From an uncultured virus (IMG/VR IMGVR_UViG_3300023236_000004) (lineage: Duplodnaviria > Heunggongvirae > Uroviricota > Caudoviricetes): DNA of 61,880 nt. This document shows, one piece after another, positions 12,488 through 59,760 of the stretch (position 1 is the first letter of the stretch; each line of letters begins with the position of its first letter). The notes beneath the pieces were generated by a model. The model made no database searches, was not told where the DNA came from, and worked only from the letters and a program-made list of their open reading frames with translations. The stretch is from IMG/VR virus record IMGVR_UViG_3300023236_000004; one strand, given 5' to 3'. The position numbers were made by a program, and so were the translations under genes.

Positions 12488-12498
12488 TTAAACCCCAG

Positions 12499-12505: not shown

Positions 12506-12528
12506 CTCTAGACACGGAAGAAAATAAT

Positions 12529-15779: not shown

Positions 15780-15799
15780 CACCACAGTTTTAAATACGC

Positions 15800-15806
15800 A
15801 TAAATA
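15800..15806 (+). promoter_or_regulatory. Late promoter-like motif ATAAATA
   Basis: Intergenic, upstream of a GAGGA RBS and the ATG at 15829. Confidence 0.6.
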
Positions 15807-15828
15807 ATAAAGTTGAGGAAAACTTAAA

Positions 15829-17484: not shown

Positions 17485-17487
17485 ATA
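17482..17487 (+). promoter_or_regulatory. Late promoter-like motif TAAATA
   Basis: Overlaps the stop of the upstream gene and precedes an AAGGA RBS and the ATG at 17505. Confidence 0.4.
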
Positions 17488-17504
17488 GCATAAGGAAGTA
17501 GAAC

Positions 17505-18434
17505 ATGGCATACGAATCCGGTGGGATCATATCAGCAGCCGATTATAACACTCTCATTAATGGGGGAAACAAACTTAACACAACTTGGTCTGTTGGAACC
17601 GGCGATGCAGGCTACGGACAAACAGCAATAACCACTAAAAGTGCCGGTGACACAGTCAGCGCCACTGAGTGGGCTAGTGTAATCAACAAACTGAACATTG
17701 TGCGTACACATCAGACTGGTGTAGGCACAGGTGTTGTTGCGGTTGTGACAGGTGACATTGTTGCATACCAACTTGGTGTTGATGACGGCGTTGACCTAGC
17801 ATACACGAATCGTTTGGTTTTTAACGCACAAGGCTCAACCACAACAGATTCAGGTACAACACACAATCCAGTTGATGCTGACGGTATCGCAACATTTACA
17901 TTTACCCGCACAGCAACATTTGCTAGTGCAGACCAAGCACGTTACTTTTTTAACGCAGGCGGCGAACTTAATTTAGATTTAACGGCAGGTGCGAACACAG
18001 GTGGTACAGGACGTGGCGCACAAGCACTATCAATGGTAACAGCAGTTGGGGGTGTTGCAGATTTTAGAGCAACCACTAACAACGGACGTACAGGCACAGG
18101 CGAAACTGAGACCACAAACAATCTAACCATTGGTTATTATGATTTAACAACCAGTAACCAAGTAATTTCAAGAGTCGACGAGTCAGGTGCGGCATACACT
18201 CCATACACATCAGACTTCTGTCAAGTTGCTGTTAAGTCAAATGGTACACAAGGCGCAAATGGTGACGTAGGCACAATTATTACTTGGACAATAACACTTG
18301 AGGCCGCGGCTACTGGCGCTGGCGGCAGTTTCAATGACAACATTGATGTACAGTTTGTTAGTAAAGTAAACGTAACAGCACCAGAGACAGCATCAGGTTT
18401 GTCTGCTGTCTGGGGCTCAGTAACTATTGGTTAA
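17505..18434 (+). CDS. Virion structural protein (fibre/baseplate-associated)
   Basis: Thr/Gly/Ala-rich with 'I.AADYN', 'GDAGYGQ' and 'F.S...ARYFFNAGG' motifs; last gene of the structural block. Confidence 0.65.
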   Translation: MAYESGGIISAADYNTLINGGNKLNTTWSVGTGDAGYGQTAITTKSAGDTVSATEWASVINKLNIVRTHQTGVGTGVVAVVTGDIVAYQLGVDDGVDLAYTNRLVFNAQGSTTTDSGTTHNPVDADGIATFTFTRTATFASADQARYFFNAGGELNLDLTAGANTGGTGRGAQALSMVTAVGGVADFRATTNNGRTGTGETETTNNLTIGYYDLTTSNQVISRVDESGAAYTPYTSDFCQVAVKSNGTQGANGDVGTIITWTITLEAAATGAGGSFNDNIDVQFVSKVNVTAPETASGLSAVWGSVTIG

Positions 18435-18447
18435 TAGTTAATTGTAG

Positions 18448-18476
18448 TTGACAACAGAATGGATAGGCAGTATAAT
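18448..18476 (+). promoter_or_regulatory. Perfect sigma70 promoter TTGACA-N17-TATAAT heading the modification locus
   Basis: TTGACA at 18448-18453, TATAAT at 18471-18476, 17-nt spacer. Confidence 0.8.
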
Positions 18477-18495
18477 ATGCTTATCCATTCTTTTT
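18456..18495 (+). terminator. Rho-independent terminator after the structural block
   Basis: 14-bp stem AGAATGGATAGGCA / TGCTTATCCATTCT (one G-U pair), 8-nt loop GTATAATA, followed by a T run. Confidence 0.75.
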
Positions 18496-18505
18496 ATATA
18501 ATACC

Positions 18506-18820
18506 ATGACAGAATTAGACAACATAGTTGCAGAAATCAAGCAGGCCACGGACTATCAAGCCAACAGACGCACACTAAGAGAACACATTCAAACAGAGTT
18601 GCACATGACATACGGTAATGGGTTGTTTAAGATCACGCCTGACCTGATATCATTCGTGGCAACGTGGAACAGTGACGAACTGTATTTAGAAGACACATAT
18701 GAGAATCCAATCAAAGTAGACAGAACAGAATTCTTAGAATTAGCTCAACAACGATATCAAGCGGTAATGAATGACTGGCATCAACAATATAATGAACTCA
18801 GACGACTCCGCAGAGTCTAA
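18506..18820 (+). CDS. Hypothetical protein (104 aa)
   Basis: First ORF after the sigma70 promoter; overlaps the next gene. Confidence 0.65.
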   Translation: MTELDNIVAEIKQATDYQANRRTLREHIQTELHMTYGNGLFKITPDLISFVATWNSDELYLEDTYENPIKVDRTEFLELAQQRYQAVMNDWHQQYNELRRLRRV

Positions 18821-19616
18821 AGGTGTAGTATTTTTTGCTCATAACACTGTTGATGTTGACTATGTTCGTATCGCAGACCTTTCTGCACGGTTAGTAGAAC
18901 AACATCTCAACTTGCCTATCACGCTAGTAACTGACACAGAGTCACAGCCCAAGCATAATTATGACAATGTTGTGCGTGTCAACTACACAGGCAACAACTT
19001 TAGAAACGACCATATATCTAAAGAAGTAAAGCAGTGGAAGAATCACGGTCGTTATACTGCATACGAACATAGTCCATACGATAACACACTGCTGATAGAC
19101 ACAGACTACTTGGTGTTAGACGACGGTTTATTAAAGTTAATGGAACTGGACTATGATTATCGTGTTATGGAACACAGCAACAGTAGTGCAGAAACCATGC
19201 CAGCACGTATGGGGCAAGTAAGTTTGCCTTACTTGTGGGCTACTGTGGTAATGTTTAGAAAATGCCCACGCAGTGAGCTGTTCTTTAATCTAATAGGACG
19301 TATACAGCGCAACTGGGCTTATTACAGAAACCTGTTTATGGTAGACGGTACAAGTTATCGCAATGATTATTCGTTTGCTATGGCTAACACAATACTAAAT
19401 GGATATTGTTCCACGTCTAAGAACATTATTCCGTGGAAGATGTTTACTGTGGTGCAAGAAGTTGTGCGCATGGACACAAATTTAAAAGACAAGATTATTG
19501 TGCGACTCAAAGATTTAGCAATCACCATACCAAAGCACAATGTACATATTATGGACAAGAACTTTTTAGTCAGTGATGCGTTTGAAGAGTTTGTTGAGGA
19601 AATACTTGATGTTTGA
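18771..19616 (+). CDS. GT-A fold glycosyltransferase-like protein (GT8-like)
   Basis: 'SPYDNTLLIDTDY' carries a DxD motif; also 'WATVVMF' and 'RNDYSF'. The start may instead be the ATG at 18792. Confidence 0.65.
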   Translation: MTGINNIMNSDDSAESKGVVFFAHNTVDVDYVRIADLSARLVEQHLNLPITLVTDTESQPKHNYDNVVRVNYTGNNFRNDHISKEVKQWKNHGRYTAYEHSPYDNTLLIDTDYLVLDDGLLKLMELDYDYRVMEHSNSSAETMPARMGQVSLPYLWATVVMFRKCPRSELFFNLIGRIQRNWAYYRNLFMVDGTSYRNDYSFAMANTILNGYCSTSKNIIPWKMFTVVQEVVRMDTNLKDKIIVRLKDLAITIPKHNVHIMDKNFLVSDAFEEFVEEILDV

Positions 19617-20430
19617 TCACAAAGAACAGCAAGGGTTCATGACCCTGGCAATTGGTGCAGACTATTTGAAAATGGCATACTTGCAAGCACTTAGTATAAA
19701 GTTAGTAATGCCCGATGCACGATATTGTGTAGCAGTGGACCCAACTACACAAGAGTTGATTACAGACAAGCAGAGCCTGGTGTTTGATTATGTTAGAACT
19801 GTAAATGCGACTGACTGGCCTATGGAACGTGAACCAGACCTATTTTCATGTTCACCTTTTAAAGAAACAATTAAGGTAGAAGCGGATTTGTTGTTCACAC
19901 GCAATGTGGATCACTGGTGGGACGCACTTAGACTGAAACCTGTTGTGCTTGCAACGCATTGCAGGAATCTTCAGGATCAAGTGGTTGTTGACACTGGATA
20001 CAGAAAGTTCTGGGTTGACAACGACTTGCCAAACATCTATAATGGTATGATGTATTTTAGATTTACACGTGAGGCAACTGAATTTTTCCAACTTGCTCGC
20101 ACTTTGTATAAACACTATAATCATATTAGAGATAACGTGTTGATAAACTGCAGGGAAGAACGTCCTAGCACTGATGTTATATACGCACTTGCCGCTAAGA
20201 TGTATGGCGTTGAAAATTGCACAATGCCCAGTTTAGATTACTTCAACTTTGTTCATATGAAACCACACATACAAGGATGGGCAGGGTCAAGTAAATGGAC
20301 AGACACAGTTATGTGTGAAACAGACCCACCAGTAATCAGGATCAACAACATTAATCAACTTAACCCTGTACACTATCATGTAAAAGAATGGTGCACAGCA
20401 GAACTTATTGAACAGTATGAACGAGCTTGA
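19609..20430 (+). CDS. GT-A fold glycosyltransferase-like protein (GT8-like), paralog of the previous gene
   Basis: 'YLKMAYLQALSIK', 'SPFKETIKVEADLLF' (ExD variant), 'YNGMMYF', 'STDVIYA', 'FVHMK'; GAGGA RBS before the ATG at 19609. Confidence 0.65.
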   Translation: MFDHKEQQGFMTLAIGADYLKMAYLQALSIKLVMPDARYCVAVDPTTQELITDKQSLVFDYVRTVNATDWPMEREPDLFSCSPFKETIKVEADLLFTRNVDHWWDALRLKPVVLATHCRNLQDQVVVDTGYRKFWVDNDLPNIYNGMMYFRFTREATEFFQLARTLYKHYNHIRDNVLINCREERPSTDVIYALAAKMYGVENCTMPSLDYFNFVHMKPHIQGWAGSSKWTDTVMCETDPPVIRINNINQLNPVHYHVKEWCTAELIEQYERA

Positions 20431-20776
20431 AAAGTTTTTAGCAGAAGTTAATGCACTGGTTGGTACTCCTAAAGAAATAGTAAAGGAGTACAGAGTATAC
20501 CATGATCTCAATGGAGAGATTGTAGGCCAGTCAATGACTGAGCCGCACCTTGAAGGTGATTATATTGTTGTCGAACAAGACGAATACGAAAACATGCACA
20601 AGTACGCACGAGTAAAAGATGGTGAACTAAAAGTAAAAGTGTTCAACCCAGGATATAAAAGACAATTGGTACACGGTGAAGGTGATTTTCAAGTAGTAAA
20701 GAACCACGCAGGCTTATTGTTAGAGCAAGATGAAACCCACAACAACACAGAATATTATGGATACACAGATTATTGA
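20417..20776 (+). CDS. Hypothetical protein
   Basis: Translationally coupled ORF within the operon. Confidence 0.6.
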   Translation: MNELEKFLAEVNALVGTPKEIVKEYRVYHDLNGEIVGQSMTEPHLEGDYIVVEQDEYENMHKYARVKDGELKVKVFNPGYKRQLVHGEGDFQVVKNHAGLLLEQDETHNNTEYYGYTDY

Positions 20777-21686
20777 CATAGCAGACTTGGATTGCATCTA
20801 TCTAAGTTATGACGAACCAAAGAAGGAAGAGTTCTGGATACAAATACAGAACATGGTACCTTGGGCGGATCGTGTTGACGGAGTAGAAGGGTCAGATGCC
20901 GCACACAAAGCCGCAGCCGCTCTGAGCAACACAGAATGGTTTGTGCTGATCGATGGTGATAACTTACCTGATCCTGACTTCTTTAACCTACAGTTGGAAA
21001 TAGAACCTGCGTTCGAAGGTGGCGCATTCCGTTGGAAAGCTAAGAACACGATCAATGGACTACGTTACGGCAACGGCGGACTAAGTGTTTGGTCACGTAC
21101 ATTTGTTAACAACATGCAAACACACGAAGCCAGTGATGGCAGTGACGACACAGCAGTGGAGTTTTGTTTTGATCCCAAGTACATAGCAATGCACAACTGC
21201 TACAGTACAACATACCCAAACGGCACACCCAAGCAAGCATGGCGAGCAGGATTTAGAGAAGGTGTAAAGATGTGTTTGGATCGTGGTGCAAAGCCAACAC
21301 TGGTAGAGTTTGAAAAGAAAGTAAACAATCGCAACTATGATCATTTGTGTATTTGGCAAAGTGTAGGCATGGATGTTGAGAATGGTGTGTGGGCAATGTA
21401 TGGCGCACGACTTGGTACTTACATGACCATGTTAGAAGACTGGCCTTACAAGCGTGTACAAGACTTTGCTGAATTAGAAAAGTTATGGGAGTCAGTTAAA
21501 GACAACGACCCAATGGAGCATAACGCAAATTTAGAAACAGCACTCACAAAACGGCTAGGTTTACCTATTGTTACACTAGATGCACAACAGAGCAAGTTTT
21601 TCAAACATCATTATGGTGCTACACTACGCAATGCTGAGGTAATGACCACAGAGATAAGTGTTATTAGGAAACAGGAAGGCTGGTAA
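20757..21686 (+). CDS. Glycosyltransferase-like protein (GT-A, DGD motif)
   Basis: 'DCIYLSYDEP', 'AAHKAAA...TEWFVLIDGDN', 'NGLRYGNGG', 'AWRAGFREGVKM'. Confidence 0.65.
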   Translation: MDTQIIDIADLDCIYLSYDEPKKEEFWIQIQNMVPWADRVDGVEGSDAAHKAAAALSNTEWFVLIDGDNLPDPDFFNLQLEIEPAFEGGAFRWKAKNTINGLRYGNGGLSVWSRTFVNNMQTHEASDGSDDTAVEFCFDPKYIAMHNCYSTTYPNGTPKQAWRAGFREGVKMCLDRGAKPTLVEFEKKVNNRNYDHLCIWQSVGMDVENGVWAMYGARLGTYMTMLEDWPYKRVQDFAELEKLWESVKDNDPMEHNANLETALTKRLGLPIVTLDAQQSKFFKHHYGATLRNAEVMTTEISVIRKQEGW

Positions 21687-23071
21687 TGGCTAAATCAGTT
21701 TTTATGAATAGCGCAGAACAGATGCGTGACAAACTTGGAAACGGAATGTGCCTTGCCAAATGGCAACAGGTAAGTCTGCACTTGCCTACAGGGTTGAACA
21801 ACAGTTGTTATCATCCGCCACTGCACCAAATAGATGCCGCTGAACTAAAAGATAATCCTAGCGCACTGCACAATACCAAGCACAAAAAAGAACAACGCAA
21901 AATAATGATCAAGCAGGAACGTCCAAACGAATGTAGTTATTGTTGGACACAAGAAGACATGGGTAACCTTAGTGATAGACATTATCGCTCAGGCGAGCCT
22001 TGGGCCGCAGAACACTTTGACCGTATAATGGAGAGCACTGGCGATGAAGATGAAATACCGAGTTATGTGGAAGTCAATTTTAACAACGCTTGTAATCTTA
22101 AGTGTAGTTACTGTAGCCCTCAGTTTAGCAGTACTTGGGCTGACGAAATAAAAAGATTTGGCGCATACCCAACCAGCAAACCACACAATGCCCCGGAACA
22201 CTTTGCAGGCAGACGTAGACCTATCCCTGCTCGCGAAGAGAATCCGTATGTGGAAGCATTTTGGAAATGGTGGCCCGAACTGTATCCTAAACTAAAACAC
22301 TTTAGGATGACTGGCGGCGAACCACTTATGGATCGTAACACATTCAAAGTGTTTGATTATGTGTTGGCGTTTCCCAAGCCTGATCTGCACATAGATGTTA
22401 CCAGTAACTTTAGTGTAGATGAAAAGTTGTGGATCCAATACTTAAATTATGTAGAAAAACTATGTAACAGCAACATAGAACACTTTATGCAGTATGTTAG
22501 TATTGATACTGGCATAGCAGAACATGCACATTATATCAGATACGGTGCAGACTATCAGAAGATTATAAAGCGGTGTGACAGTTTCCTTACTCAGATTCCG
22601 TACCGAAATAGTTTAACGTTTATTATAACAATGAATAATCTAAACATATTAGGTTTACAGGATCTATTGCAAGAAATATTGCGTTTACGAGCAACTCAGA
22701 GTCATACATACCAACGTGTTTGGTTTGACACTCCCATACTGCGCCAGCCAACTTGGCAAAGTTTGCAGATACTCCCGCCTGTGTATGCAGACAGGTTAGC
22801 GGGCATTATAGAGTGGATGGAATTACATCGCGAAACAGAAGAAAACATGTATGTTGGATTTAAAGATTATGAAATAGCACGTATGCACAGAGTTCTAGAT
22901 TGGATGCGCGAAGGTAGCAAATTAACACCAGAGTATGTTATAATGCAACGTGCAGACTTTTATAGATTTTTTAACGAGCAAGACAAACGTAGTAAGACTA
23001 ACTTTTTAGCAACGTTCCCACAAATGAAAGAGTTTTGGGAAGAATGCAGGTACCACGCACACAATGAATAA
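21686..23071 (+). CDS. Radical SAM enzyme 1 with N-terminal Twitch/SPASM-like domain
   Basis: CNLKCSYC motif, TGGEP, and N-terminal C..KW...CYH...CSYC. Confidence 0.9.
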   Translation: MAKSVFMNSAEQMRDKLGNGMCLAKWQQVSLHLPTGLNNSCYHPPLHQIDAAELKDNPSALHNTKHKKEQRKIMIKQERPNECSYCWTQEDMGNLSDRHYRSGEPWAAEHFDRIMESTGDEDEIPSYVEVNFNNACNLKCSYCSPQFSSTWADEIKRFGAYPTSKPHNAPEHFAGRRRPIPAREENPYVEAFWKWWPELYPKLKHFRMTGGEPLMDRNTFKVFDYVLAFPKPDLHIDVTSNFSVDEKLWIQYLNYVEKLCNSNIEHFMQYVSIDTGIAEHAHYIRYGADYQKIIKRCDSFLTQIPYRNSLTFIITMNNLNILGLQDLLQEILRLRATQSHTYQRVWFDTPILRQPTWQSLQILPPVYADRLAGIIEWMELHRETEENMYVGFKDYEIARMHRVLDWMREGSKLTPEYVIMQRADFYRFFNEQDKRSKTNFLATFPQMKEFWEECRYHAHNE

Positions 23072-24326
23072 AATATTTCCTATAAAAACAGAAACTGCTT
23101 GCCGTCTGAAATGGGGATGGAGCACCATATATCTCAGTTTAGGCGAAACAGCAAGTTGTCATCGTTGCAACCGACATGAATTTGATTTAGATACATTTGA
23201 TTTTCATAATACAGAAGAGAAAGTTAAATCAAGGGAAATGATGCTAGAAGGCAAGTGGCCTGGCCAAGGATGCGAATACTGCAGAGACATAGAACAAGCA
23301 GGAGGCGAGAGCGATAGAACAACAAATCTGGCAATGCCCGGCGTCCCAACTCCCCCTGAACTCAAGGACAATCCGATAGCAACCAGTGTGACACCTACAG
23401 TGTTGGAAGTTTATTTCAGCAACTTGTGTAATCAAAAATGTCTATACTGTTCAGAACTTTTCAGCTCTATGTGGGCAGAAGAAAACTTCAAGCATGTCGG
23501 GCAATACACAAGTCAAAAGTGGAGTTATTCGAGACATGGCGTAATTTTTAAGAATGCAAATAGCTTCGATGCCAACAAGCAAAAGGTATACGATTGGTTA
23601 AAGAACGAAGGGCATAATTTAAGCCAGTTTAACTTTTTAGGTGGAGAACCTTTATTTCAAAAAGAATTTATAGAATGTTTGGATATATTTGATCAATACC
23701 CCAGTCCGAAACTTACACTACAAATTTTTACCAATCTTAGTGTTAAGAAAGATAGATTAGTTGAAATTATAAGTAAAGTAGAGAAATTAATAGCAAAAAG
23801 AAAAATAGGTGGGTTTCAAGTTACAGCAAGTTTGGACAATTGGGGGCCGGAAGCCGAGTATGTTAGATTTCCGTTAGATTTAAAACAATGGGAAGAAAAC
23901 TTTTTGTACATATTGTCTAAGAAGTATATTAACTTAGTTATTAACTCAACACTTACTCCAATGACTATAAAAACTTATCCTATATTACTTGAAAAAGTTA
24001 GGGAATGGTCTAAGGTTAGAAAGATTTACTTGTATCAAAACTCTGTAAATGATCCTACTAATCAAAGAATAGACATATTCGGAAACATATTCGAAGAAGA
24101 CTTTCAAAAGGCATTGGCATTAAAGCCTGTTGACACAGAGGAAGAACAGCTTAGTAAAGACTACTTAGATGGATTAAGAAAGCAAAGCAACAGCAAAGAA
24201 CCGAATGTCAAGGAAATAACAAGTTTGTTTCACTTTTTAAATGATATTGATTTGAGAAGAAACATAAATTGGAGGAAAACCTTTCCTTGGCTAGTTGCCG
24301 AATTTGGAAAATATAATTTAAAATGA
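23064..24326 (+). CDS. Radical SAM enzyme 2 with N-terminal Twitch/SPASM-like domain
   Basis: CNQKCLYC, LGGEP, and N-terminal CRLKW...CHRC...CEYC. Confidence 0.9.
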   Translation: MNKIFPIKTETACRLKWGWSTIYLSLGETASCHRCNRHEFDLDTFDFHNTEEKVKSREMMLEGKWPGQGCEYCRDIEQAGGESDRTTNLAMPGVPTPPELKDNPIATSVTPTVLEVYFSNLCNQKCLYCSELFSSMWAEENFKHVGQYTSQKWSYSRHGVIFKNANSFDANKQKVYDWLKNEGHNLSQFNFLGGEPLFQKEFIECLDIFDQYPSPKLTLQIFTNLSVKKDRLVEIISKVEKLIAKRKIGGFQVTASLDNWGPEAEYVRFPLDLKQWEENFLYILSKKYINLVINSTLTPMTIKTYPILLEKVREWSKVRKIYLYQNSVNDPTNQRIDIFGNIFEEDFQKALALKPVDTEEEQLSKDYLDGLRKQSNSKEPNVKEITSLFHFLNDIDLRRNINWRKTFPWLVAEFGKYNLK

Positions 24327-25666
24327 ATGATTTAGAATTTAAACAACAAATATTAGACACAAAGTCAGCGAGCTTTTGTGGAGCAAAATGGTATAACGCT
24401 ACTATATGGCTTGGTAGTGGCATGAGTACCAGTTGTCATCATCCACCAGCACACAAAGTTGATATTGAAGAAGTTAAGCGTAATCCCAAAGCAATACACA
24501 ACACGCCCGAAAAGAAGCAAGACAGGGCGCAGATGCAGGCAGGAGAACGTCCGCCAGGTTGTGAGTACTGCTGGAAGATTGAAGATATCAAACGTGATAA
24601 CATTTCTGACCGTGTGTATAAAAGTAAAATATATACTATAAAGGAATTAGACGATGCATATCAATCAGATGCAACAGGAGACGTGGACTTACGAACTTTG
24701 GAAATCAGTTTCGATAGGACTTGTCAATTTGCTTGCAGTTATTGCAACCCTGCTTTTAGTAGTACATGGGTTAAGGATATCAAATCAAACGGAAGTTATA
24801 CTGGGCTTGTTTCTGACGGGCGTAATCATTTTACCCATGCTCATGACAGTGCGCAGTTGTACAAATTCGGCGAGGAAAATCCTTATGTTGAGGCGTTCTT
24901 CAAGTGGTGGGAATCAGACCTACACCGAACGCTAGACGAACTACGCATTACAGGTGGCGAACCACTAATGAGTGGCTACACCTGGAAACTTATAGACTGG
25001 TTTAAACAAAACAAAGGCAAGAGTAAAACACGCTTGGCGATTAACAGTAACTTAGGTAAGGATATAGATGTAGATAGATTGTTCGACAGTGTAGACCAAC
25101 CTATAGACCTATATACTAGCAACGAAAGTTGGGATAAACAAGCAGAGTATATACGTGACGGCCTGGAATGGGAACTGTGGTGTGATAACATAAACAAAGT
25201 ACTAAAAGTACATAGAAATAAATTGCGTGGGTTACATGTAATGTGTACAATTAATGCATTGTGTTTGGAAAGTCTGACTGCCTTTTTAGATTTATTAGTT
25301 GGATGGAAATCAAAACACGGTAAACATGCTGTAAGTTTTACACTTAATATCTTACGCTTCCCTAGTTTCCAAAGTCCGTTGGTGTTCCCTGAAGAAATTA
25401 GAATTAAACACAAAGAACGTTTACGCACATGGTTGGATTATCAAACGGCACGACCAATTGGGCAGTTGTTGCATGAACATGAGATTAACCACATCATACG
25501 ATTAATTGATTACTTGGATGTAGTAGAAACACCACATTCAGACACATTCGACATGCCCAAACTACACAACGACTTTAAACAGTTTCACGAACAGTATGAC
25601 AAACGCAGAGGAAAGAACTTGACAGAGACTTTTCCAGAACTAGCAGATTGGTACAATGGACTCTAA
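24323..25666 (+). CDS. Radical SAM enzyme 3 with N-terminal Twitch/SPASM-like domain
   Basis: CQFACSYC, TGGEP, and N-terminal CGAKW...CHHP...CEYC; closest paralog of enzyme 1. Confidence 0.9.
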   Translation: MNDLEFKQQILDTKSASFCGAKWYNATIWLGSGMSTSCHHPPAHKVDIEEVKRNPKAIHNTPEKKQDRAQMQAGERPPGCEYCWKIEDIKRDNISDRVYKSKIYTIKELDDAYQSDATGDVDLRTLEISFDRTCQFACSYCNPAFSSTWVKDIKSNGSYTGLVSDGRNHFTHAHDSAQLYKFGEENPYVEAFFKWWESDLHRTLDELRITGGEPLMSGYTWKLIDWFKQNKGKSKTRLAINSNLGKDIDVDRLFDSVDQPIDLYTSNESWDKQAEYIRDGLEWELWCDNINKVLKVHRNKLRGLHVMCTINALCLESLTAFLDLLVGWKSKHGKHAVSFTLNILRFPSFQSPLVFPEEIRIKHKERLRTWLDYQTARPIGQLLHEHEINHIIRLIDYLDVVETPHSDTFDMPKLHNDFKQFHEQYDKRRGKNLTETFPELADWYNGL

Positions 25667-26984
25667 AAAATTTTACAACAAAGGCTACGACTACATGAGT
25701 CGCAAGCCGTACTTTGCAGAACTAGAAGACTTGACTGAGAAACAAACAGACTTGTTAATGGACAGCAAAACGTTTTGCATGTTGCCCTGGATGCACATGC
25801 ATGCATTTCCAGATGGCAGAGCATATCCTTGTTGTCTAAGTGATTATTGGCATCCTGTAGGTGACTTACGCAAGCATACTATGGAAGAGGTATGGAATCA
25901 AGACGATTACAAAACAATGCGTACAAATATGCTTGCAGGTAAAGAGTGTAAAGAATGTACCAAGTGTTACGAGCAAGAACAACACGGTGCATTTAGTATG
26001 CGCAACGATTCAAACAGAAACTACGGTCATCACATAGCAGAAGCAGAGCAGACTAATGCAGATGGTTCTGTAGATGATTTTAAAATACGCTACTGGGACG
26101 TTAGGTTCAGTAACCTGTGTAACTTTAGCTGTAGAAGTTGTGGTCCTATCTTTAGCAGTAATTGGTATAATGACCATGTAAAACTGTATAATCGTAAGCC
26201 AGATGTACTGGGTAGGGACATGGCACGAGTAGAGTATACTGCGGGCAACGAAGACAGTATGTTGGAACAAATGGAACAGCATATTCCACATTTAGAGCAG
26301 GTGTATTTTGCAGGTGGCGAACCACTTATAATGAAAGAACATTATTATCTATTAGACAAACTAATAGAGTACGGTAAGACAGATGTGCGAATACAGTACA
26401 ATACAAACTTTAGCGAAATGCGTTATAAAAACAAACATGTATTCGATTACTGGCAACATTTTACGAATGTTAGTGTTGGCGCCAGTTTAGATGCTAGTGG
26501 TGCTAGAGCAGAGCTTATGCGCAAAGGCACAGATTGGAAACAAACAGTTGAGAACAGACAACGCATGTTAAAAGAAGTACCGCATGTGGACTTTTATGTA
26601 AGCGCAACCGTGAGTGCAATGAACGTGCTACACGTGCCAGACTTTCACAAAGAGTGGGTAGAGTTAGGGCTAATTGAAGCAAAAGACTGGAATATTAATA
26701 TATGTCAGTCACCAGACTGGTACAGACCAGATATATTTACAACGGAATTTAAAAAGAATGTTATAACGCCCAAGTACAAAGAACATATTGCATGGTTAGA
26801 CCCGCAGGACAGTTTACGTCGTGCCATTAATGGCTATGAGAGTGTGTTGAGTTTATTACAAGGACAAGATAACAACAAGCAGTGGCCTGAGTTTGAGCAA
26901 CAAATTGCAAAATTAGATGTTATAAGAAACGAAAACTTCTGGGACACATTCCCTGAGTACAAGGAACTAAATGGAACTTCCTAA
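25656..26984 (+). CDS. Radical SAM enzyme 4 with N-terminal Twitch/SPASM-like domain
   Basis: CNFSCRSC, AGGEP, and N-terminal CMLPW...PCC...CTKC. Confidence 0.9.
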   Translation: MDSKKFYNKGYDYMSRKPYFAELEDLTEKQTDLLMDSKTFCMLPWMHMHAFPDGRAYPCCLSDYWHPVGDLRKHTMEEVWNQDDYKTMRTNMLAGKECKECTKCYEQEQHGAFSMRNDSNRNYGHHIAEAEQTNADGSVDDFKIRYWDVRFSNLCNFSCRSCGPIFSSNWYNDHVKLYNRKPDVLGRDMARVEYTAGNEDSMLEQMEQHIPHLEQVYFAGGEPLIMKEHYYLLDKLIEYGKTDVRIQYNTNFSEMRYKNKHVFDYWQHFTNVSVGASLDASGARAELMRKGTDWKQTVENRQRMLKEVPHVDFYVSATVSAMNVLHVPDFHKEWVELGLIEAKDWNINICQSPDWYRPDIFTTEFKKNVITPKYKEHIAWLDPQDSLRRAINGYESVLSLLQGQDNNKQWPEFEQQIAKLDVIRNENFWDTFPEYKELNGTS

Positions 26985-28176
26985 AACAATATGCATGCTA
27001 CCTTGGATTAGCATAGAAGCTAGTCCAATTGGATCCGCAAGACCTTGCTGTTTGGCAATAGACGAAATAACAGATGAGTCAGGCGAAAAGTATGACTTAA
27101 ACAAAGACAATTTGCAGACAATATACAACAGCAAGTACATGCAAGACTTACGGCAACAATTTAGAAATGGTGAGAAACCAGAGACCTGCACACGCTGTTG
27201 GCAAGAAGAAGCCGCAGGCCGTGCAAGCAAACGCATACACAGTAGGATCCGACTAAAAGAGTTTGTTGACAAAGTAGACTATGCTAACGACAAACCAGAC
27301 CAATTATGGTTTGTGGATTTAAAGCTGGGGAACATTTGTAACCTAAAGTGTCGTATATGCGGAAGTTGGAGCAGTAGTAAATGGGCACAAGAAGAAATAG
27401 ATTATATACCCGAATTGAAGAACAAAAAGAGCCACTTGGCATACAAGTTCTTGCAACAAGGACAATGGCCAAGAAAGACACAAGCCTTCTGGGACAACCT
27501 ACGTGAACTACTACCCAACATCAAGTATCTAGAATTCACTGGCGGTGAGCCATTTATGATCAAAGAACACTTTGAATTGCTACAGTATGCAGTAGATCAA
27601 GGCTACGCCAAAGACATTGACATACACTACAACACAAACGGTACACAATGGCCAGATGCGTATGAGTTATGGAGTCACTTTAAACGTGTGGATATTGCAT
27701 TCAGTATCGACAACGTAGGCAAGCGTTTTGAATACGAACGCTACGGTGCTAAGTGGAACGAAGTAGAAGACAACATAAGACGTTTTCATAAACTGCGTGA
27801 TCGCAACATAAGAAAAATTACCACACAAGTGTGCATGACCATTAACGCACAAAATGTTTATTACTTAGAAGAACTATGCGAGTGGGTAAACACACAAACG
27901 TTCAATGATCATTACTTTAACATGTTACACGATCCTAAGCACATGTGTATTGATGGATTGACACCAGTAGCAAAACGTATTGTGGTGGAGAAGTTACTTA
28001 ACGGTAAATTCATGCCCAAACATAAAGCAGAAATCATGCGCATTGTAAAATTTATCGAAAATGGTGCAGGAACTGACGGCGAAGAGTTTGTGTTTAAGAT
28101 GCAACAAACTGATAGATATCGTAAAGAAAGTTTTTCAGACACACACCCGGAAATAGCAAAGGCAATGGGGTACTAA
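26971..28176 (+). CDS. Radical SAM enzyme 5 with N-terminal Twitch/SPASM-like domain
   Basis: CNLKCRIC, TGGEP, and N-terminal CMLPW...PCC...CTRC. Confidence 0.9.
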   Translation: MELPKTICMLPWISIEASPIGSARPCCLAIDEITDESGEKYDLNKDNLQTIYNSKYMQDLRQQFRNGEKPETCTRCWQEEAAGRASKRIHSRIRLKEFVDKVDYANDKPDQLWFVDLKLGNICNLKCRICGSWSSSKWAQEEIDYIPELKNKKSHLAYKFLQQGQWPRKTQAFWDNLRELLPNIKYLEFTGGEPFMIKEHFELLQYAVDQGYAKDIDIHYNTNGTQWPDAYELWSHFKRVDIAFSIDNVGKRFEYERYGAKWNEVEDNIRRFHKLRDRNIRKITTQVCMTINAQNVYYLEELCEWVNTQTFNDHYFNMLHDPKHMCIDGLTPVAKRIVVEKLLNGKFMPKHKAEIMRIVKFIENGAGTDGEEFVFKMQQTDRYRKESFSDTHPEIAKAMGY

Positions 28177-28183
28177 CAAGACT

Positions 28184-29452
28184 ATGGAATTAAAGAAAAT
28201 AATAGATAGTAAATCATACAGAAAATTTAAAGGGGCGGATTGGCCTCAGTATGACGATTTTATTAATGACAACTATAGTGTTTCTCCTACCATTGACAAT
28301 GAATTAAGTAATTTTGTTGGCGTAATGGAGGAACATTATAAAGATATAGCATCTAAGTCAACCGAAGAGTTGTCAACATCAATTCAAACACGCCAGGATC
28401 AAGTTTTTTATAACAAATCATATACTGGAACAAACAGGTGCAGGGAACCATGGGAAACAATGGGAGTCAATGAAAACGGGAATGTTTTTTTATGTGCTTG
28501 CTCAAGTTGGATTCCTATTTTCTTAGGCACAGTATTGGATTCAAAAAACATTTACGAAATATTAAATTGCAACCAAGCAAAGAAAATTAGATTCGAGATT
28601 CTTAAAGATAGATATTACTACTGCAATTCTAGTATATGTACGTTTTTCCAGTCTGCTAACCCAGCATCGCACAAAAAAACGTACACTGATAAAGATCAAA
28701 TACCTTTAGAGTTAGACGATCAAGATGATTCAAATCTTTGTGTTACACAAATACCAAAAAATTTAGTTTTTGATTTTGATATTAGCTGTAATTTTAAGTG
28801 TCCGAGTTGTAGAGTAGAATATCAAAATTACAACAATGATCTCATTATAAGACCAATTAATGATACGATATCTGAAAAGATTAAAAAATTGATAATTGAC
28901 GAAATCAAGGACCAACCTATAATTATCAGATGGGCTGGCGGCGAGCCATTTATAAGTGACGTTTATTTAGAACTGCTTGACTACATAATAGATAGTGGTA
29001 AAACAAACATACAGAATATTATACACACAAATGGCAGTGTCCTTATTGCAAAGAAAGACTTAGTGTTGAAGTTACTTCCTTATATCTCAGAGTTACGTAT
29101 AAGTTTTGATGCAGGCTGTGAGCAAACCTATAAACTAACACGAGTTGGCGGACAGTGGGACAACCTATTAAAAAATGTAAAATTTGTTAAAGATCTAATA
29201 GAAGAAAATAATTTTAAAACAAAGTTATCTGCTGACTTTGTAGTACAAAAGAGTAATTATAAAGATCTACCTCTATTTGCTAACCTGTGTAGAGAGTTTG
29301 GATTGTCGATGAATATACAAAAAATGTGGAATTGGGATACCTGGGACAAAGAAGTTTTTTATGACATGAATGTATATGATAGCAAACATTATTTGTACGA
29401 CGATTTAAAAGAATATTTTAAGTTAGCTAATTTACCAATGGCCGAAAATTGA
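28184..29452 (+). CDS. Radical SAM enzyme 6 (divergent subfamily, AT-rich gene)
   Basis: CNFKCPSC, AGGEP, and upstream CREPW...CAC...CNSSIC; lacks the SSxW motif of the other six. Confidence 0.88.
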   Translation: MELKKIIDSKSYRKFKGADWPQYDDFINDNYSVSPTIDNELSNFVGVMEEHYKDIASKSTEELSTSIQTRQDQVFYNKSYTGTNRCREPWETMGVNENGNVFLCACSSWIPIFLGTVLDSKNIYEILNCNQAKKIRFEILKDRYYYCNSSICTFFQSANPASHKKTYTDKDQIPLELDDQDDSNLCVTQIPKNLVFDFDISCNFKCPSCRVEYQNYNNDLIIRPINDTISEKIKKLIIDEIKDQPIIIRWAGGEPFISDVYLELLDYIIDSGKTNIQNIIHTNGSVLIAKKDLVLKLLPYISELRISFDAGCEQTYKLTRVGGQWDNLLKNVKFVKDLIEENNFKTKLSADFVVQKSNYKDLPLFANLCREFGLSMNIQKMWNWDTWDKEVFYDMNVYDSKHYLYDDLKEYFKLANLPMAEN

Positions 29453-30735
29453 AATCAAAAACATTATGCATGGCACCGTGGACACACACGTATCTGAGTC
29501 CACAGACAGAAAGACGTTTATGTTGTGCATCACGTGAACCAGCACAAAACTTTGAACAGTACATAGATACAAAAGCAGGTACTGGTACTTATATACCTAT
29601 TACATTAGAACAGCATTGGAATAGTGAACACATGCGTAGTGTGCGCAAGCGCATGATGGCAGGAGAAACGTTACCAGAGTGTGAAGTGTGCAATGACAAG
29701 TTATTAAACACTGACGTTTACCGCTCATATTTTAACAGTTTATTTGGGCATAAGTACTTACACGCAGTAGAAACAACTGACGAAACAGGTTACACCTCCA
29801 TGGAGCCAATCTCCTGGGATTATCGATTCAGTAACCTATGTAACTTCAAATGCCGTATGTGCGGCGACATGCTGTCCAGTGCATGGGAAACTGAGCAAAA
29901 ACAGCATGACATGGTCAATTGGCACGATCCAAAAAACAGTTGGATGCGCCCCGAGGTCAAGAATCAGATTGAACATTTCCAAAGTACTCAAGTTGAACAA
30001 GAGTTTGCACAAGCGGTAGAGGACCACCGTGTCGAGGAAGTCTATTGGGTAGGCGGTGAACCTCTCATGTACGAGCAACACTGGAAGTACATGCAGAGAA
30101 TAATTGAACTGGGAGATGGAAAAAATGTTTATGCAAGGTACAACACTAATCTTAGTAGGATCACTTATCGCGGTTGCGATCTTTACAGTGATATTTTACC
30201 TGGGCTTCGCGACTGGCAAATATGCGCAAGCATTGACGGTACAGGCACAATTGGAGAGTATGTCAGAACAGGTCTTGACTATCCGGAGTGGCTTGAAAAT
30301 TTTAAACGAGGAGTTAGTACAGCTACTCATAGAAGACAAATGAGAATAGACTTCACGCTTACCTTACCGGGTATGTTTGAAGTCGTTCCAATAATCAAAC
30401 TAGCACGTGAGCTTAATGTAGATATCTTGGCTAAAGTTGTTTTCAGCTTTAGCCCGGATATTGCGTTGAGTCCACTAGCACTACCAAAATCTATTTTACA
30501 TAAATGGGTGGACGAACTGTTGCCGGACACACATGGTGCAATGCATGATGTACTACAGCAACTTAAATCACGTCCTACGTTTGACGAACAATGGCCAAAT
30601 GAATACAAACAAGGACTTGCAAAAGGCAAGGCTCGTGTGTTACAATTAGAAAGTATTAGAACGCAATCAACTACAATGGATGAAATATTGTCCAAGAGAC
30701 CAGACGTATATGAGTGGTGGAATCAAATCAGTTAA
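29449..30735 (+). CDS. Radical SAM enzyme 7 with N-terminal Twitch/SPASM-like domain
   Basis: CNFKCRMC, VGGEP, and N-terminal CMAPW...LCC...CEVC; TTG start overlaps the upstream stop. Confidence 0.9.
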   Translation: MKSKTLCMAPWTHTYLSPQTERRLCCASREPAQNFEQYIDTKAGTGTYIPITLEQHWNSEHMRSVRKRMMAGETLPECEVCNDKLLNTDVYRSYFNSLFGHKYLHAVETTDETGYTSMEPISWDYRFSNLCNFKCRMCGDMLSSAWETEQKQHDMVNWHDPKNSWMRPEVKNQIEHFQSTQVEQEFAQAVEDHRVEEVYWVGGEPLMYEQHWKYMQRIIELGDGKNVYARYNTNLSRITYRGCDLYSDILPGLRDWQICASIDGTGTIGEYVRTGLDYPEWLENFKRGVSTATHRRQMRIDFTLTLPGMFEVVPIIKLARELNVDILAKVVFSFSPDIALSPLALPKSILHKWVDELLPDTHGAMHDVLQQLKSRPTFDEQWPNEYKQGLAKGKARVLQLESIRTQSTTMDEILSKRPDVYEWWNQIS

Positions 30736-31858
30736 GGTAGTACTACGTAATCCTTTAGACAAAAAAGATCAGTTAGACTACACAATAGAATTAACAGATA
30801 CCCAATTGGCGCAGGACTGGGCGAGTGCATTGCAGGTAGAATTACGAAGCAACAGACTATTAGAAAAAAATTATTGCTTTATGGGCTTCCCCCATTCGCC
30901 GCGCAACTTGCCCTATCTGTGTCGCGAAATAAATGATTCGATATACCGTATTAATATTTTTAATCGCACAGGTATTTGGCAGCAAGCGGGACTTAAACCT
31001 TACATAATAGAAGATTACTTTACGCCAGACACTGTCCGATTCGGTGATGAATATCCTGTTGGCTATGATAGTGACAACTTGGGCCTTGGGGTCAAGCATG
31101 GTGCAATGAATAGACTACATAACTACTTCGAAGTACTGCAAGGCACTGTAGAAAATCTAAGTCCTTATTACAAACATGCAGATTTTGAAACCAAATACGC
31201 TATTAGGCAACTAAACAACTTATGTCACGAATCAGAAACGCTTATTCTAAGTCAACGTAAACAAGCAACAGTGCCAGACTGGGTACGTCCTAGTCAGATT
31301 ACAACATTCTTGCAAGCATTACGTTTTGAGCTAACGGACGAGCATAGGAAAGATTTTATTGCAAACGGATACGACAGAGAGTTTGGTGGAGTATACATGC
31401 ACTGGACACAAATTGGCAAAACACTGATGGAAGTGTTTAGGGATGAGCATGCACCAGAATTAACTGACACGGTATGTGAAGCAATTACTCATTTACAATA
31501 CTACTCGGGAGAGTTTGATGTAGAGTGGGGTAAAACAATACGCTATGTTGATGGTTACGAGTGGCACAATAAAGAAATTGATGACTTTACTAATTGGTTA
31601 GAACTTAACGGCATGGACCCAACTGATCCACAGTTAAGTTTAGGGCATGCAAAAATTGGACAAGTATTGCTGACAGAAAGTTTTGGACAATGTCATCCCC
31701 AAGCAATACTACAACATCTTAGCAATCACTTAGACATTTACCGTATAGAAGTTGGAGACGTGAGTAATACGTTTGATTATTGTTGGGGTGACCATAACTA
31801 CAAACAAACGCAAATAGACATGATGAGGCCAGGGTATGAACATAGTAGCAGGGGGTGA
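30710..31858 (+). CDS. Hypothetical protein in the modification operon
   Basis: Long coupled ORF with His motifs 'NRLHNYFE' and 'LNNLCHE'; no family recognised. Confidence 0.7.
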   Translation: MSGGIKSVKVVLRNPLDKKDQLDYTIELTDTQLAQDWASALQVELRSNRLLEKNYCFMGFPHSPRNLPYLCREINDSIYRINIFNRTGIWQQAGLKPYIIEDYFTPDTVRFGDEYPVGYDSDNLGLGVKHGAMNRLHNYFEVLQGTVENLSPYYKHADFETKYAIRQLNNLCHESETLILSQRKQATVPDWVRPSQITTFLQALRFELTDEHRKDFIANGYDREFGGVYMHWTQIGKTLMEVFRDEHAPELTDTVCEAITHLQYYSGEFDVEWGKTIRYVDGYEWHNKEIDDFTNWLELNGMDPTDPQLSLGHAKIGQVLLTESFGQCHPQAILQHLSNHLDIYRIEVGDVSNTFDYCWGDHNYKQTQIDMMRPGYEHSSRG

Positions 31859-32648
31859 TAGTTTCGTATACGGTAGTGAATTAAAAGACTGCATACGTGC
31901 GCATAGTCACAGCACATTTCCTGCATTGTTGGCACATGATATTAAACAAACATATAGATGCACAGCCTGGCCCGGTATAGGCAACGATGCTATTGCACGT
32001 AGAGTGATTGATGAAGTTTATGTATACCGCATGCACGGCACTCAGGTCCGTGATTTATTTGTTATTGTAAACTGGACATTCCCTGGCAGGTATGAATTTA
32101 GATTCAACTACGACACAGGGCAACGCACAGGTAATTGGTACGCTATTACTCCGCACACCGCAGATATCAAATTAGAAAATCCTATAGCAAGAATGCAAAG
32201 CGAGCACATTGCTAGAGCTACGCAAAAAGGTATGGCAGGTTTTGCTGAAACTTTCTACAAACATGTAGGTGGGGATTACTGGGACACATACCAATCGTTA
32301 AAAGAAATAGTGTATCTGCAAAACTACTTAATTGCAAACGGAATAAAGTACATGTTCACATGTGCAGATAACAGTATCTTGTGCAATAAATTGATACATG
32401 ACGCTAGTAACAGATCAATGAAGATGTGTGATGATAACATCAACATGCTAGTCAAGGAGATCAAAGATCGACAACAAAACTGGTTTTGGTTTCCGGATGG
32501 TGAAACAGGCCCAAGAGGTTTTTACCAGTGGGCAATGGAAAATAAATACCCTAGTGGAGAAACACATCCACTAGAAGAAGCGCACGATGCCGCTTATCAA
32601 CTTATGAAGGACAAGTTCAATGAACTGGTTAAAGAACCTTTGGAATAG
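31836..32648 (+). CDS. SGNH/GDSL-like hydrolase or acyltransferase
   Basis: N-terminal GDSF, 'PGIGND.I' and C-terminal 'HPLEEAH'. Confidence 0.75.
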   Translation: MNIVAGGDSFVYGSELKDCIRAHSHSTFPALLAHDIKQTYRCTAWPGIGNDAIARRVIDEVYVYRMHGTQVRDLFVIVNWTFPGRYEFRFNYDTGQRTGNWYAITPHTADIKLENPIARMQSEHIARATQKGMAGFAETFYKHVGGDYWDTYQSLKEIVYLQNYLIANGIKYMFTCADNSILCNKLIHDASNRSMKMCDDNINMLVKEIKDRQQNWFWFPDGETGPRGFYQWAMENKYPSGETHPLEEAHDAAYQLMKDKFNELVKEPLE

Positions 32649-32721
32649 AATCATCCTAGAAATACGCTATCGTAAAAAGCTCAAAGAACTTAAAAAACGA
32701 GATCCTTTTATTTACAAATGA
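32620..32721 (+). CDS. 33-aa peptide MNWLKNLWNRIILEIRYRKKLKELKKRDPFIYK (below the ORF-track cutoff); DltX/SxtK-like FIY motif
   Basis: ATG at 32620 preceded by AAGGA. It fills the gap between two SGNH genes, and its TGA overlaps the next start (ATGA, 32718-32721). Confidence 0.75.
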   Translation: MNWLKNLWNRIILEIRYRKKLKELKKRDPFIYK

Positions 32722-33353
32722 TTTTAACAATAGGCGACAGTTTTACCTACGGTGCAGAACTTGACAATCGTGAACAAGACGCATGGCCGTATCTATTGGG
32801 AAGAGAATTAGACTTTGGAGTTTACAACCTTGCTGTACCTGGGGGTAGTAACGATAGGATGTTTAGGGTTACTATTGACCGGGTTGTACAAAATAATTAT
32901 GAACTAGTAATATGCGCTTGGACTGAACCGTCAAGACTTGATTTAATGTTCGGAGGAAAAGAGCTACAAATAACCAGTGCTAGTTATCATCACCACACTA
33001 GGTTCCCGTGGATTAAACAGTATTATGCAGAACACTATGATGTAGCACACGCAACACAAACTTGGTTAGCAAAGGTATTAGCACTACAAGATCTTTTAAA
33101 ACAGCGTAGACAAAAGTATGTGTTTGTTAGTATGGACGGGCACTGGGACGACTACCACTATAAGAATATTGGTTTACAGCATATGGCTGATGCAGTAGAC
33201 AAAGAACACTACTTGGGTTGGCCTCATGAGGGATTCACGCATTGGCAGGATGGTTGTCCGTTAGGCCCAAATGGACATCCATTGGAACTTGGACATCAAC
33301 GAATAGCAGATAAAATTTATGAACATATTAGGAATAAGCAGTGGTTTTCATGA
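32718..33353 (+). CDS. SGNH/GDSL-like hydrolase or acyltransferase
   Basis: GDSFTYG, 'NLAVPGGSND' and C-terminal 'GHPLELGH'. Confidence 0.8.
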   Translation: MILTIGDSFTYGAELDNREQDAWPYLLGRELDFGVYNLAVPGGSNDRMFRVTIDRVVQNNYELVICAWTEPSRLDLMFGGKELQITSASYHHHTRFPWIKQYYAEHYDVAHATQTWLAKVLALQDLLKQRRQKYVFVSMDGHWDDYHYKNIGLQHMADAVDKEHYLGWPHEGFTHWQDGCPLGPNGHPLELGHQRIADKIYEHIRNKQWFS

Positions 33354-35465: not shown

Positions 35466-35475
35466 AAAGAATAGC

Positions 35476-59755: not shown

Positions 59756-59760
59756 TCATT

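Follow-up and report, generated by a model that had tools for sequence, protein, structure and literature searches.

What would a bacteriophage do with seven radical S-adenosylmethionine (SAM) enzymes encoded in a row, and on what would they act? The question is raised by a 61,880-nucleotide stretch of DNA (hereafter, the window) from the uncultured virus record IMGVR_UViG_3300023236_000004 of IMG/VR (Caudoviricetes), which covers positions 123437-185316, on the minus strand, of a record of 221,342 bp with an estimated completeness of 63%. The source is a fragment of a T4-like jumbo phage, because the record encodes a T4-type portal (gp20), a major capsid protein (gp23), a gp5-like baseplate hub domain and a family B DNA polymerase. 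An original prediction, made from the sequence of the window alone, took the seven proteins for radical tailoring enzymes acting on a glycan or nucleotide sugar. The present analysis supports the sugar-gene context, which would point to a glycan or nucleotide-sugar substrate, and leads to a reading that we give about an even chance of being correct, namely, that these genes belong to a phage island for the building and tailoring of sugars, in which a fixed set of five radical SAM enzymes with the twitch-type domain in front, along with some extra enzymes, act on one sugar-bearing molecule.

An array of twitch-first radical SAM enzymes

The seven open reading frames (ORFs) follow one another on the plus strand, consecutive and mostly overlapping as originally described: five of the six junctions are overlaps of 4-14 nt and the remaining one is a 7-nt gap. 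They are listed here with the bit scores against the NCBIfam model NF033640 (N_Twi_rSAM, "twitch domain-containing radical SAM protein"; curated cutoff 170 bits) and with the number of orthologs (at least 40% identity and at least 50% coverage) in 62 related viral loci, which come from a scan of viral contigs with R4 and are in many cases truncated where the contig stops.

21686-23071, plus strand: R1, 461 amino acids (aa); 306 bits; CNLKCSYC at residue 136; core gene; ortholog in 43 of 62 loci
23064-24326, plus strand: R2, 420 aa; 218 bits; accessory gene, variable in relatives; ortholog in 4 of 62 loci
24323-25666, plus strand: R3, 447 aa; 295 bits; core gene; ortholog in 47 of 62 loci
25656-26984, plus strand: R4, 442 aa; 410 bits; core gene; ortholog in 55 of 62 loci
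26971-28176, plus strand: R5, 401 aa; 357 bits; core gene; ortholog in 46 of 62 loci
28184-29452, plus strand: R6, 422 aa; 92 bits; divergent accessory gene with an 80-residue N-terminal extension; ortholog in 3 of 62 loci
29449-30735, plus strand: R7, 428 aa; 300 bits; core gene; ortholog in 44 of 62 loci

The CxxxCxxC motif, which is the predicted site of the SAM-cleaving [4Fe-4S] cluster, and the GGEP motif are present in all seven proteins, and SSxW follows CxxxCxxC in six, being missing from R6; all this agrees with the first description. The C-terminal signature D..R...(F/W)..TFP, which had been attributed to most of the proteins, can be recognized clearly in R2 and R4 and only approximately in R1, R3 and R5, and R6 and R7 lack it, so that "most" was generous.

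A search with radical SAM and N-terminal twitch models, the first of the checks proposed with the original prediction, assigns six of the seven proteins to NF033640 above the cutoff (218-410 bits; E-values from 1.8e-64 to 1.4e-122). R6 (E = 3.8e-26) falls under the cutoff, yet NF033640 is still its best family; judged by its sequence, R6 is a divergent relative. The alignments begin at model positions 1-4 in all seven cases. The Pfam SPASM profile matches R4 at residues 41-104, R5 at 8-77, R6 at 86-148 and R7 at 7-82, each time ahead of Radical_SAM, with scores above the gathering threshold in R4, R5 and R6 and slightly under it in R7 (20.1 vs 21.5 bits). The Pfam Radical_SAM profile itself is matched with E-values of 0.01 or lower in six proteins, at the gathering score in R1, R4, R5 and R6 (residues 202-340 in the latter) and below it in R2 and R7, and is not detected in R3. 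Thus, the Cys-rich domain does precede the SAM core. The order is the reverse of the usual one, as had been claimed, but it is not new: NF033640 is defined by the same architecture, twitch first and radical SAM core second, so this layout is already cataloged. The definition of NF033640 does not include the high copy number, the fixed set of five subfamilies or the phage setting described here.

The spacing of the auxiliary cysteines in R4 is C-x17-C-x41-C-x2-C (C41, C59, C101 and C104), and the SAM cluster motif is C155/C159/C162. Full SPASM enzymes possess a motif of seven to eight cysteines for two auxiliary clusters. In the 13 paralogs encoded in the record, only four auxiliary Cys columns (C41, C59, C101 and C104) are conserved, which is short of a full SPASM domain, and R4 scores 17 bits against the cutoff of 27 with the SPASM model TIGR04085 (rSAM_more_4Fe4S). 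By these sequence features, the array proteins are radical SAM enzymes with an N-terminal twitch-type domain, predicted to hold one auxiliary [4Fe-4S] cluster. All other NCBIfam hits (MoaA, QueE, viperin, peptide maturases, heme d1 enzymes) are far under the respective cutoffs, and none of the seven proteins clusters with characterized cofactor-biosynthesis or activating enzymes. The family is abundant in metagenomes from aquatic settings, where a single member has over 6,400 relatives at E-values of 1e-10 or lower.

Old paralogs and a fixed core of five

The record holds 13 NF033640 matches (12 over the cutoff), six of them outside the array, and in 12 of the 13 the scores cover nearly the full model. 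When copy number is compared across related genomes, as had been suggested, 11 matches above the cutoff are found in a near-complete relative of 354 kb (98% complete) and 8 in another of 338 kb (97%), and an 85-kb fragment of a distant relative carries 11 matches within about 17 kb. The "very large Fe-S investment" noted at the outset is therefore larger than claimed, with 13 copies in the record and, in addition, a phage ErpA (see below).

The pairwise identity among the 13 paralogs is only 20-34%. CxxxCxxC is found in all 13, and the invariant positions (R4 numbering) are C41, C59, C155, C159, C162, G220-G221-E222, N251, S277 and R289, with C101 and C104 nearly invariant. A FastTree phylogeny was built from 88 hand-chosen rows comprising the 13 paralogs and members of 6 viral and 21 bacterial loci, the latter found via an R4-type query. 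In this tree, R1, R2, R3, R4, R5 and R7 fall into separate clades, each with orthologs from distant phages and Bdellovibrionota contigs; R1, R2 and R3 form a joint clade with 100% local support, and the long branches of R6 and of X1 and X3-X5 are unreliably placed. Because each subfamily has orthologs in distant phages and Bdellovibrionota and the paralogs are so dissimilar, a recent duplication within phages does not account for the set. The description of these genes as a duplicated and diversified set thus has to be revised: by sequence comparison, they are old subfamilies shared with bacteria and not a phage invention.

A hidden Markov model (HMM) of the 13 paralogs identifies 1-10 such genes in each of 61 viral loci, with a median of five. 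The order R1-R3-R4-R5-R7 is kept in all 37 viral loci that hold the five core orthologs, 2 of which carry a second copy of R5. Genes inserted within the arrays of relatives encode radical SAM proteins of two other families, one lacking the twitch domain (9 loci) and one that binds B12 (8 loci), as well as DUF6071/GDSL proteins and a carbamoyltransferase. Of 62 longer R4 homologs (775-2210 aa), 49 are R4-R5 fusions with two CxxxCxxC motifs and at least 45% identity to each half, and the contigs that carry some of them measure 205-327 kb. The R4 and R5 genes of the window share a 14-nt overlap, and their counterparts in a bacterial array are neighbors as well. Fusion and adjacency together argue that R4 and R5 work together; the prediction of an R4-R5 complex gave a score of 0.00 and no verdict either way. 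Among the other long homologs, one (P0167) contains TPR repeats and another contains an FkbM-type methyltransferase domain.

Fold comparison and the closest characterized enzymes

An AlphaFold2 (AF2) model of R4 (predicted local distance difference test, pLDDT, 78; predicted template modeling score, pTM, 0.80) has BlsE as its best structural neighbor (Z 12.4, root-mean-square deviation 3.3 over 211 residues), effectively tied with MoaA (11.7), CteB (11.4), anSME (11.3) and SkfB (11.2). A Foldseek search identifies viperin, SkfB, anSME, MoaA, BlsE and DesII, the latter with the highest query TM-score (0.37) among the matches listed. BlsE and DesII are radical SAM enzymes that act on a nucleoside-sugar or a TDP-sugar; the sequence identity is 14-18%, and the scores indicate the SPASM/twitch branch only. 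Thus, the modeled fold places the family in this branch and is silent on the substrate.

The closest parallel for the auxiliary domain is BtrN (PDB 4m7t, 4m7s), the 2-deoxy-scyllo-inosamine dehydrogenase of butirosin biosynthesis, whose substrate is sugar-like and whose pathway also includes aminotransferases and glycosyltransferases. Like the phage proteins, BtrN has a single four-Cys auxiliary domain; a profile of the paralogs matches its twitch region with E-values of 0.0011-0.0022, and the Cys spacing, which we take to be C-x17-C-x44-C-x2-C in BtrN, is close to that in R4. The differences are substantial: only profile positions 5-83, that is, the twitch segment, align; the twitch domain is C-terminal in BtrN and N-terminal here; and the phage proteins exceed BtrN by about 150 residues and have a C-terminal region that is helical. 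The C-terminal twitch behind a short radical SAM core and the full-length similarity expected of a BtrN-type dehydrogenase were accordingly not found.

The best matches by sequence among solved structures are peptide maturases of the same branch, with E-values of 7.9e-16 for 8vpo and 1.2e-12 for SkfB, and with CteB, SuiB and anSME also among them. These matches bring in a different explanation, under which the array modifies a protein or peptide (a tail fiber, another virion protein or a ribosomal peptide) by cross-linking, epimerization or similar reactions, in the manner of the SPASM/twitch maturases for ribosomally made, post-translationally modified peptides (RiPPs). We regard this as quite unlikely. 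The similarity to the maturases is limited to the shared radical SAM core; peptide maturases have C-terminal auxiliary domains and, in most cases, an N-terminal peptide-recognition domain. Pfam and NCBIfam scans, which did not extend to distant folds of the RiPP recognition element (RRE) or to remote precursors, detected no RRE, precursor, leader peptidase or exporter, and the tightly packed genes of the array leave no room for a small precursor.

The sugar-related gene neighborhood

The island extends on both sides of the array. The genes upstream of R1 are the following:

18506-18820, plus strand: first gene of the island, 104-aa protein; no Pfam match at E < 5; ortholog in 34 of 62 loci
18771-19616, plus strand: GT8-like glycosyltransferase paralog, 281 aa; invariant D110-x-D112; 28 of 62 loci
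19573-20430, plus strand: GT8-like glycosyltransferase, 285 aa; 34 of 62 loci
20730-21686, plus strand: 318-aa protein, ends on the R1 start codon; 40 of 62 loci

The genes downstream of R7 are the following:

30680-31858, plus strand: 392-aa protein; AF2 model with pLDDT 83 and pTM 0.82; 32 of 62 loci
31836-32648, plus strand: SGNH/DUF6071-like protein; DUF6071 E = 0.0028, below cutoff
32718-33353, plus strand: SGNH/DUF6071-like protein; DUF6071 E = 1.9e-9, and GDSL hits
33319-34812, plus strand: NodU/CmcH-type carbamoyltransferase; Carbam_trans_C E = 5e-52, Carbam_trans_N E = 8e-36; 39 of 62 loci
34809-35465, plus strand: 218-aa protein; N-terminal GDSF motif, which on visual reading only is SGNH-like; no HMM hit; variable, in 4 loci by tblastn
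35476-35940, plus strand: APS-kinase-like small P-loop kinase; Pfam APS_kinase E = 1.8e-9; 30 of 62 loci
35930-36136, plus strand: 68-aa hydrophobic ORF overlapping the kinase gene; the only small ORF left without an assignment; in 12 loci

The family profile of the 19573-20430 protein (A6) matches glycogenin-1, a member of glycosyltransferase family 8 (GT8), with E = 2.4e-7 over profile positions 4-111 (about 108 positions), and the profile of the 18771-19616 protein (A5) matches A6 with an hhalign probability of 99% (E = 7.5e-18); the latter protein has no direct Pfam or PDB hit. Both are predicted glycosyltransferases related to GT8, distantly so because there is no direct Pfam hit; indeed, these two and the 20730-21686 protein, the three glycosyltransferase candidates of the island, have none even at E < 5. 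For the 20730-21686 protein, which is unrelated to A6, the nearest ESM Atlas cluster bears the automatic name "Glycosyltransferase 2-like"; as a lead only, it is possibly a GT-A-type transferase. Thus, of the glycosyltransferase neighbors postulated originally, two hold up as GT8-like and the third has only an automatic cluster name.

With the GT8-like pair upstream and the NodU-type carbamoyltransferase and SGNH-like genes downstream, the array does have the sugar-handling neighbors that had been claimed for it. The carbamoyltransferase scores 134 bits with the NodU model, under the equivalog cutoff, and the small kinase is far below the cutoffs of the NCBIfam APS kinase models. Further downstream are genes for a dCMP deaminase, a DegT/PseC-like sugar aminotransferase, an NAD-dependent sugar dehydratase/epimerase and a canonical thymidylate synthase. 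Elsewhere, the phage encodes a UDP-glucose dehydrogenase (UGDH), a phosphomannomutase, a GDP-mannose-dehydratase-like enzyme, a cytidylyltransferase and a sugar aminotransferase. In related phages, the co-occurrence of glycosyltransferases, which had been left to be checked, is seen for the two GT8-like genes in 28 and 34 of the 62 loci. The original prediction could have failed on two counts, clustering of these proteins with characterized cofactor-biosynthesis or activating enzymes and absence of glycosyltransferase genes alongside them in related phages; neither was observed, since no such clustering was found and the glycosyltransferases do co-occur.

The genes in the 13 kb downstream of the array invite another interpretation, that of nucleotide or phage-DNA chemistry, either a DNA hypermodification pathway or a viperin-like activity, given the dCMP deaminase, the thymidylate synthase, the small kinase and a nucleotidyltransferase-like gene found there and the presence of viperin among the best fold and sequence matches. 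We consider it highly improbable. The thymidylate synthase is canonical (374 bits vs the cutoff of 327) and not a hydroxymethylase; the sugar-type genes accompany the array in more loci than the deaminase does (14 of 62), and the thymidylate synthase was found in no locus, with 10-kb flanks limiting both counts; and the bacterial contexts of the family are free of DNA-modification genes. Matches to the viperin model NF038283, with E-values as low as 1.4e-11 (for R6), are seen for six of the array proteins at 16.6-44.1 bits vs the cutoff of 180, which does not make them members of the viperin family.

The kinase, the 68-aa ORF and a small HxGH-type nucleotidyltransferase-like protein are grouped at 35476-36549 of the window. 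Together with a SulP permease encoded elsewhere in the record, this group hints at metabolism of sulfate or another activated group.

Bacterial relatives

A Bacteriovoracaceae contig (L081) carries eight genes of this family adjoining the L21, L27, obg and rsfS genes, and these neighbors show the array to be chromosomal. The best hits to the phage core are at 48% identity for R1, 53-54% for R3, 41% for R4, 37% for R5 and 45% for R7, all well above the identity between paralogs. Three Bdellovibrionota genomes contain 8, 8 and 5 NF033640 matches above the cutoff. Inspection of the gaps of L081 for precursor-like small ORFs revealed only ribosomal protein genes and, at 12478-12909, inside the array, a secreted Cys-rich ORF that looks Sel1-like by eye. 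In a homolog from Elusimicrobiota (L078:9224-11230), Sel1 repeats are fused at the N terminus (E = 6e-47 against a Sel1 repeat protein of solved structure).

Glycosyltransferase or sugar-nucleotide genes are present within about 6-10 kb, in scanned stretches of 12-21 kb, in 8 of the 18 bacterial loci according to Pfam (6 of 11, 0 of 3 and 2 of 4 in the three batches), a raw count. The context scans took in 121 of 131, 50 of 73 and 46 of 53 proteins, locus L129 and short ORFs being left out. Two of the loci are, by their gene content, unmistakable polysaccharide loci: one from Crocinitomicaceae, with a carbamoyltransferase, a GT1 glycosyltransferase, three radical SAM genes of this family, a sulfotransferase and a GDSL protein, and another with UGDH, an epimerase, a GT1 enzyme and a Wzt-type ABC exporter.

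The multi-copy bacterial arrays suggest a further alternative, in which the core five make up a self-contained multi-step pathway to a non-glycan product, be it a small molecule, a cofactor or a lipid, and the phage glycosyltransferases are an add-on or serve another product. Bdellovibrionota chromosomes contain the core orthologs side by side, and the 17-21 kb retrieved around them are free of glycosyltransferases: eight radical SAM genes next to L21/L27/obg in L081, four next to fur/zrgA and an ABC transporter in L080, and four to five next to prkA in L113. Locus L154 adjoins menaquinone genes, and the B12-binding and twitch-less radical SAM genes in the arrays of viral relatives are also a feature of natural-product clusters. 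We nevertheless deem this explanation unlikely: in phages, the GT8-like pair, SGNH-like genes and the carbamoyltransferase are consistent neighbors of the array, bacterial genes of the R4 type that occur in single copy often reside within clear polysaccharide loci, two more loci of the same Oligoflexia genome have GT2, DegT and RmlC-like neighbors, and no scaffold-building enzyme was found.

Contigs L073-L076, from metagenome-assembled genome bins of Legionellales, Porticoccaceae and Haliscomenobacter, contain a phage-type array with 46-52% identity to R4, and one of them, L075, has the phage gene order along with DUF6071 and a carbamoyltransferase. All four are probably of phage origin and were binned with bacteria.

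Genomic setting and expression signals

The array is positioned downstream of baseplate and tail-fiber genes. After the baseplate hub genes, a giant ORF at 2-12487 of the window (172830-186989 of the record) encodes a protein of 4719 aa (4161 aa within the window) with FG-GAP and beta-propeller matches, by which it is probably a giant fiber or adhesin. A 71-nt gap separates the fiber block from the island and contains the following:

18448-18476, plus strand: putative sigma-70-type promoter, TTGACA-17-TATAAT; 12 of 12 hexamer positions, from a consensus scan only
18456-18491, plus strand: terminator-like hairpin with a 14-bp stem and a T tail, overlapping the promoter match

A second 12-of-12 match to the sigma-70 consensus lies at 20015-20043, inside the second GT8-like gene, making two such matches in 20 kb. 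The T4 late-promoter consensus TATAAATA is not found in the whole window, compared with 4.8 occurrences expected.

This setting and some other features speak for the possibility of protein or peptide modification. The island lies directly behind the baseplate and tail-fiber genes, including that for the 4719-aa protein; GT8 includes the protein-glycosylating glycogenin; and homologs carry Sel1 repeats (in Elusimicrobiota) or TPR repeats (P0167), both of which are protein-binding modules. The description of the cultured Aeromonas jumbo phage vB_AerVM_332-Vera further reports eight radical SAM superfamily genes inside a large structural cluster with tail-fiber genes, which its authors call highly unusual (PMC12390700). 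Phage 332-Vera is phiKZ-like (Chimallinviridae) and not T4-like, its likeness to the present array is taken from that description, and it was not recovered by tblastn searches of the phage collection with R4 or R5. Against protein or peptide modification stand the perfect match to the sigma-70-type promoter and the hairpin between the island and the fiber genes.

Sequencing runs labeled salt lake metagenome contain a near-identical copy of the stretch. Among cultured phages, a megablast search with the array yields no match, and tblastn with R4 and R5 identifies 4 and 7 records, respectively, with 22-28% identity and without functional annotation. Contigs of four RNA libraries cover 22-30 of the 30 bins of positions 17000-36900 at a likeness of at least 85%, which is not proof of transcription. 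Two marine RNA-library contigs are near-exact to the region of the accessory R6 gene (28143-29492), one with 5 differences in 1350 nt and the other with 1 in 557 nt; most of the remaining cover comes from relatives that are about 90% alike.

Support functions

The record encodes an ErpA-type Fe-S insertion protein (146 bits vs the cutoff of 117; positions 68683-69015 of the record, L004:14683-15015). Also elsewhere in the record (59065-59796, 66477-66917 and 67926-68507) are an FNR-like reductase, a cytochrome c and a Cu/Zn superoxide dismutase; the FNR-like flavoprotein adjoins paralog X4, and the cytochrome c adjoins paralog X5. The combination of ErpA and the FNR-like set would fit a virus that matures and reduces many oxygen-sensitive enzymes.

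Other genes of the record (15337-16707, 19625-21715, 33983-35545 and 49528-50034) include the curli-secretion homologs CsgF and CsgG, a CHASE2 adenylate/guanylate cyclase, the STAS-domain sulfate permease SulP and a Thoeris inhibitor of the Tad3 type.

A possible mode of action

If the array indeed belongs to an island for the building and tailoring of a sugar, each paralog would abstract a hydrogen atom from a different position, or from a different intermediate, of one sugar-bearing molecule made by the phage. The two GT8-like transferases would assemble this molecule, and the carbamoyltransferase, the SGNH-like proteins and the kinase would add further decorations to it. By analogy with BtrN, the auxiliary cluster might serve as an electron acceptor or as a substrate anchor. 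R1, R3, R4, R5 and R7 would act as a fixed multi-step set, R4 and R5 jointly, R2 and R6 would be swappable extras, and the phage ErpA and FNR-like reductase could help to load and reduce the enzymes of the array.

Several observations weigh against this scheme. Literature searches retrieved no paper that names N_Twi_rSAM or the N-terminal-twitch family, these arrays or a characterized member, and because there is no family member with a known reaction, the chemistry is guessed by analogy. Comparison of folds cannot separate sugar, nucleotide and peptide substrates because the scores lie within about 1 Z unit of each other, and by sequence, the closest solved relatives are the peptide maturases. 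Of the 18 bacterial loci, 10 have housekeeping or unrelated genes instead of a nearby glycosyltransferase, among them three of the four multi-copy Bdellovibrionota arrays (L081, L080 and L113), and because the count is not set against the chance frequency of glycosyltransferase genes in such stretches, the bacterial sugar context is suggestive only. Two island proteins have no supported function: the 20730-21686 protein has no Pfam, NCBIfam or PDB profile hit (none with E < 0.6 in PDB), and the 392-aa protein has no Foldseek match at E-values of 0.001 or lower and no usable ESM Atlas hit, with a best VIA Z of 8.2 and top rows that are mostly cyclophilin-like barrels, within the range of noise. 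Finally, no Wzx/Wzy-type gene, oligosaccharyltransferase or other gene that would define the acceptor was found in the island.

A bolder proposal, which we put forward as speculation with a low probability of being right, is that the core five represent an ancient, fixed radical pathway common to predatory Bdellovibrionota and jumbo phages. Such a pathway, in which R4 and R5 would form a pair, would carry out serial C-H functionalizations that differ from all characterized routes, on a sugar or cyclitol-like scaffold. The resulting glycan or pseudo-oligosaccharide would be heavily edited and carbamoylated, perhaps also sulfated or phosphorylated, and would be displayed by the phage or released in the course of infection, with the phage supplying its own Fe-S carrier and reductase in oxic saline water.

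Implications

The twitch-first architecture was already known and cataloged as NF033640. The present analysis adds the genome-wide complement of 13 copies, the orthologous array of five subfamilies in a bacterial chromosome, the R4-R5 fusions, the link to GT8 and the phage ErpA. The latter, together with the FNR-like reductase, raises the possibility that a virus supplies the maturation and reduction of its own Fe-S enzymes. Few radical SAM enzymes work on sugars, and those that do are mostly from antibiotic pathways. Solving the chemistry of this family would assign a function to thousands of unannotated phage and bacterial genes and could reveal new modifications of sugars or metabolites that are relevant to phage-host recognition.

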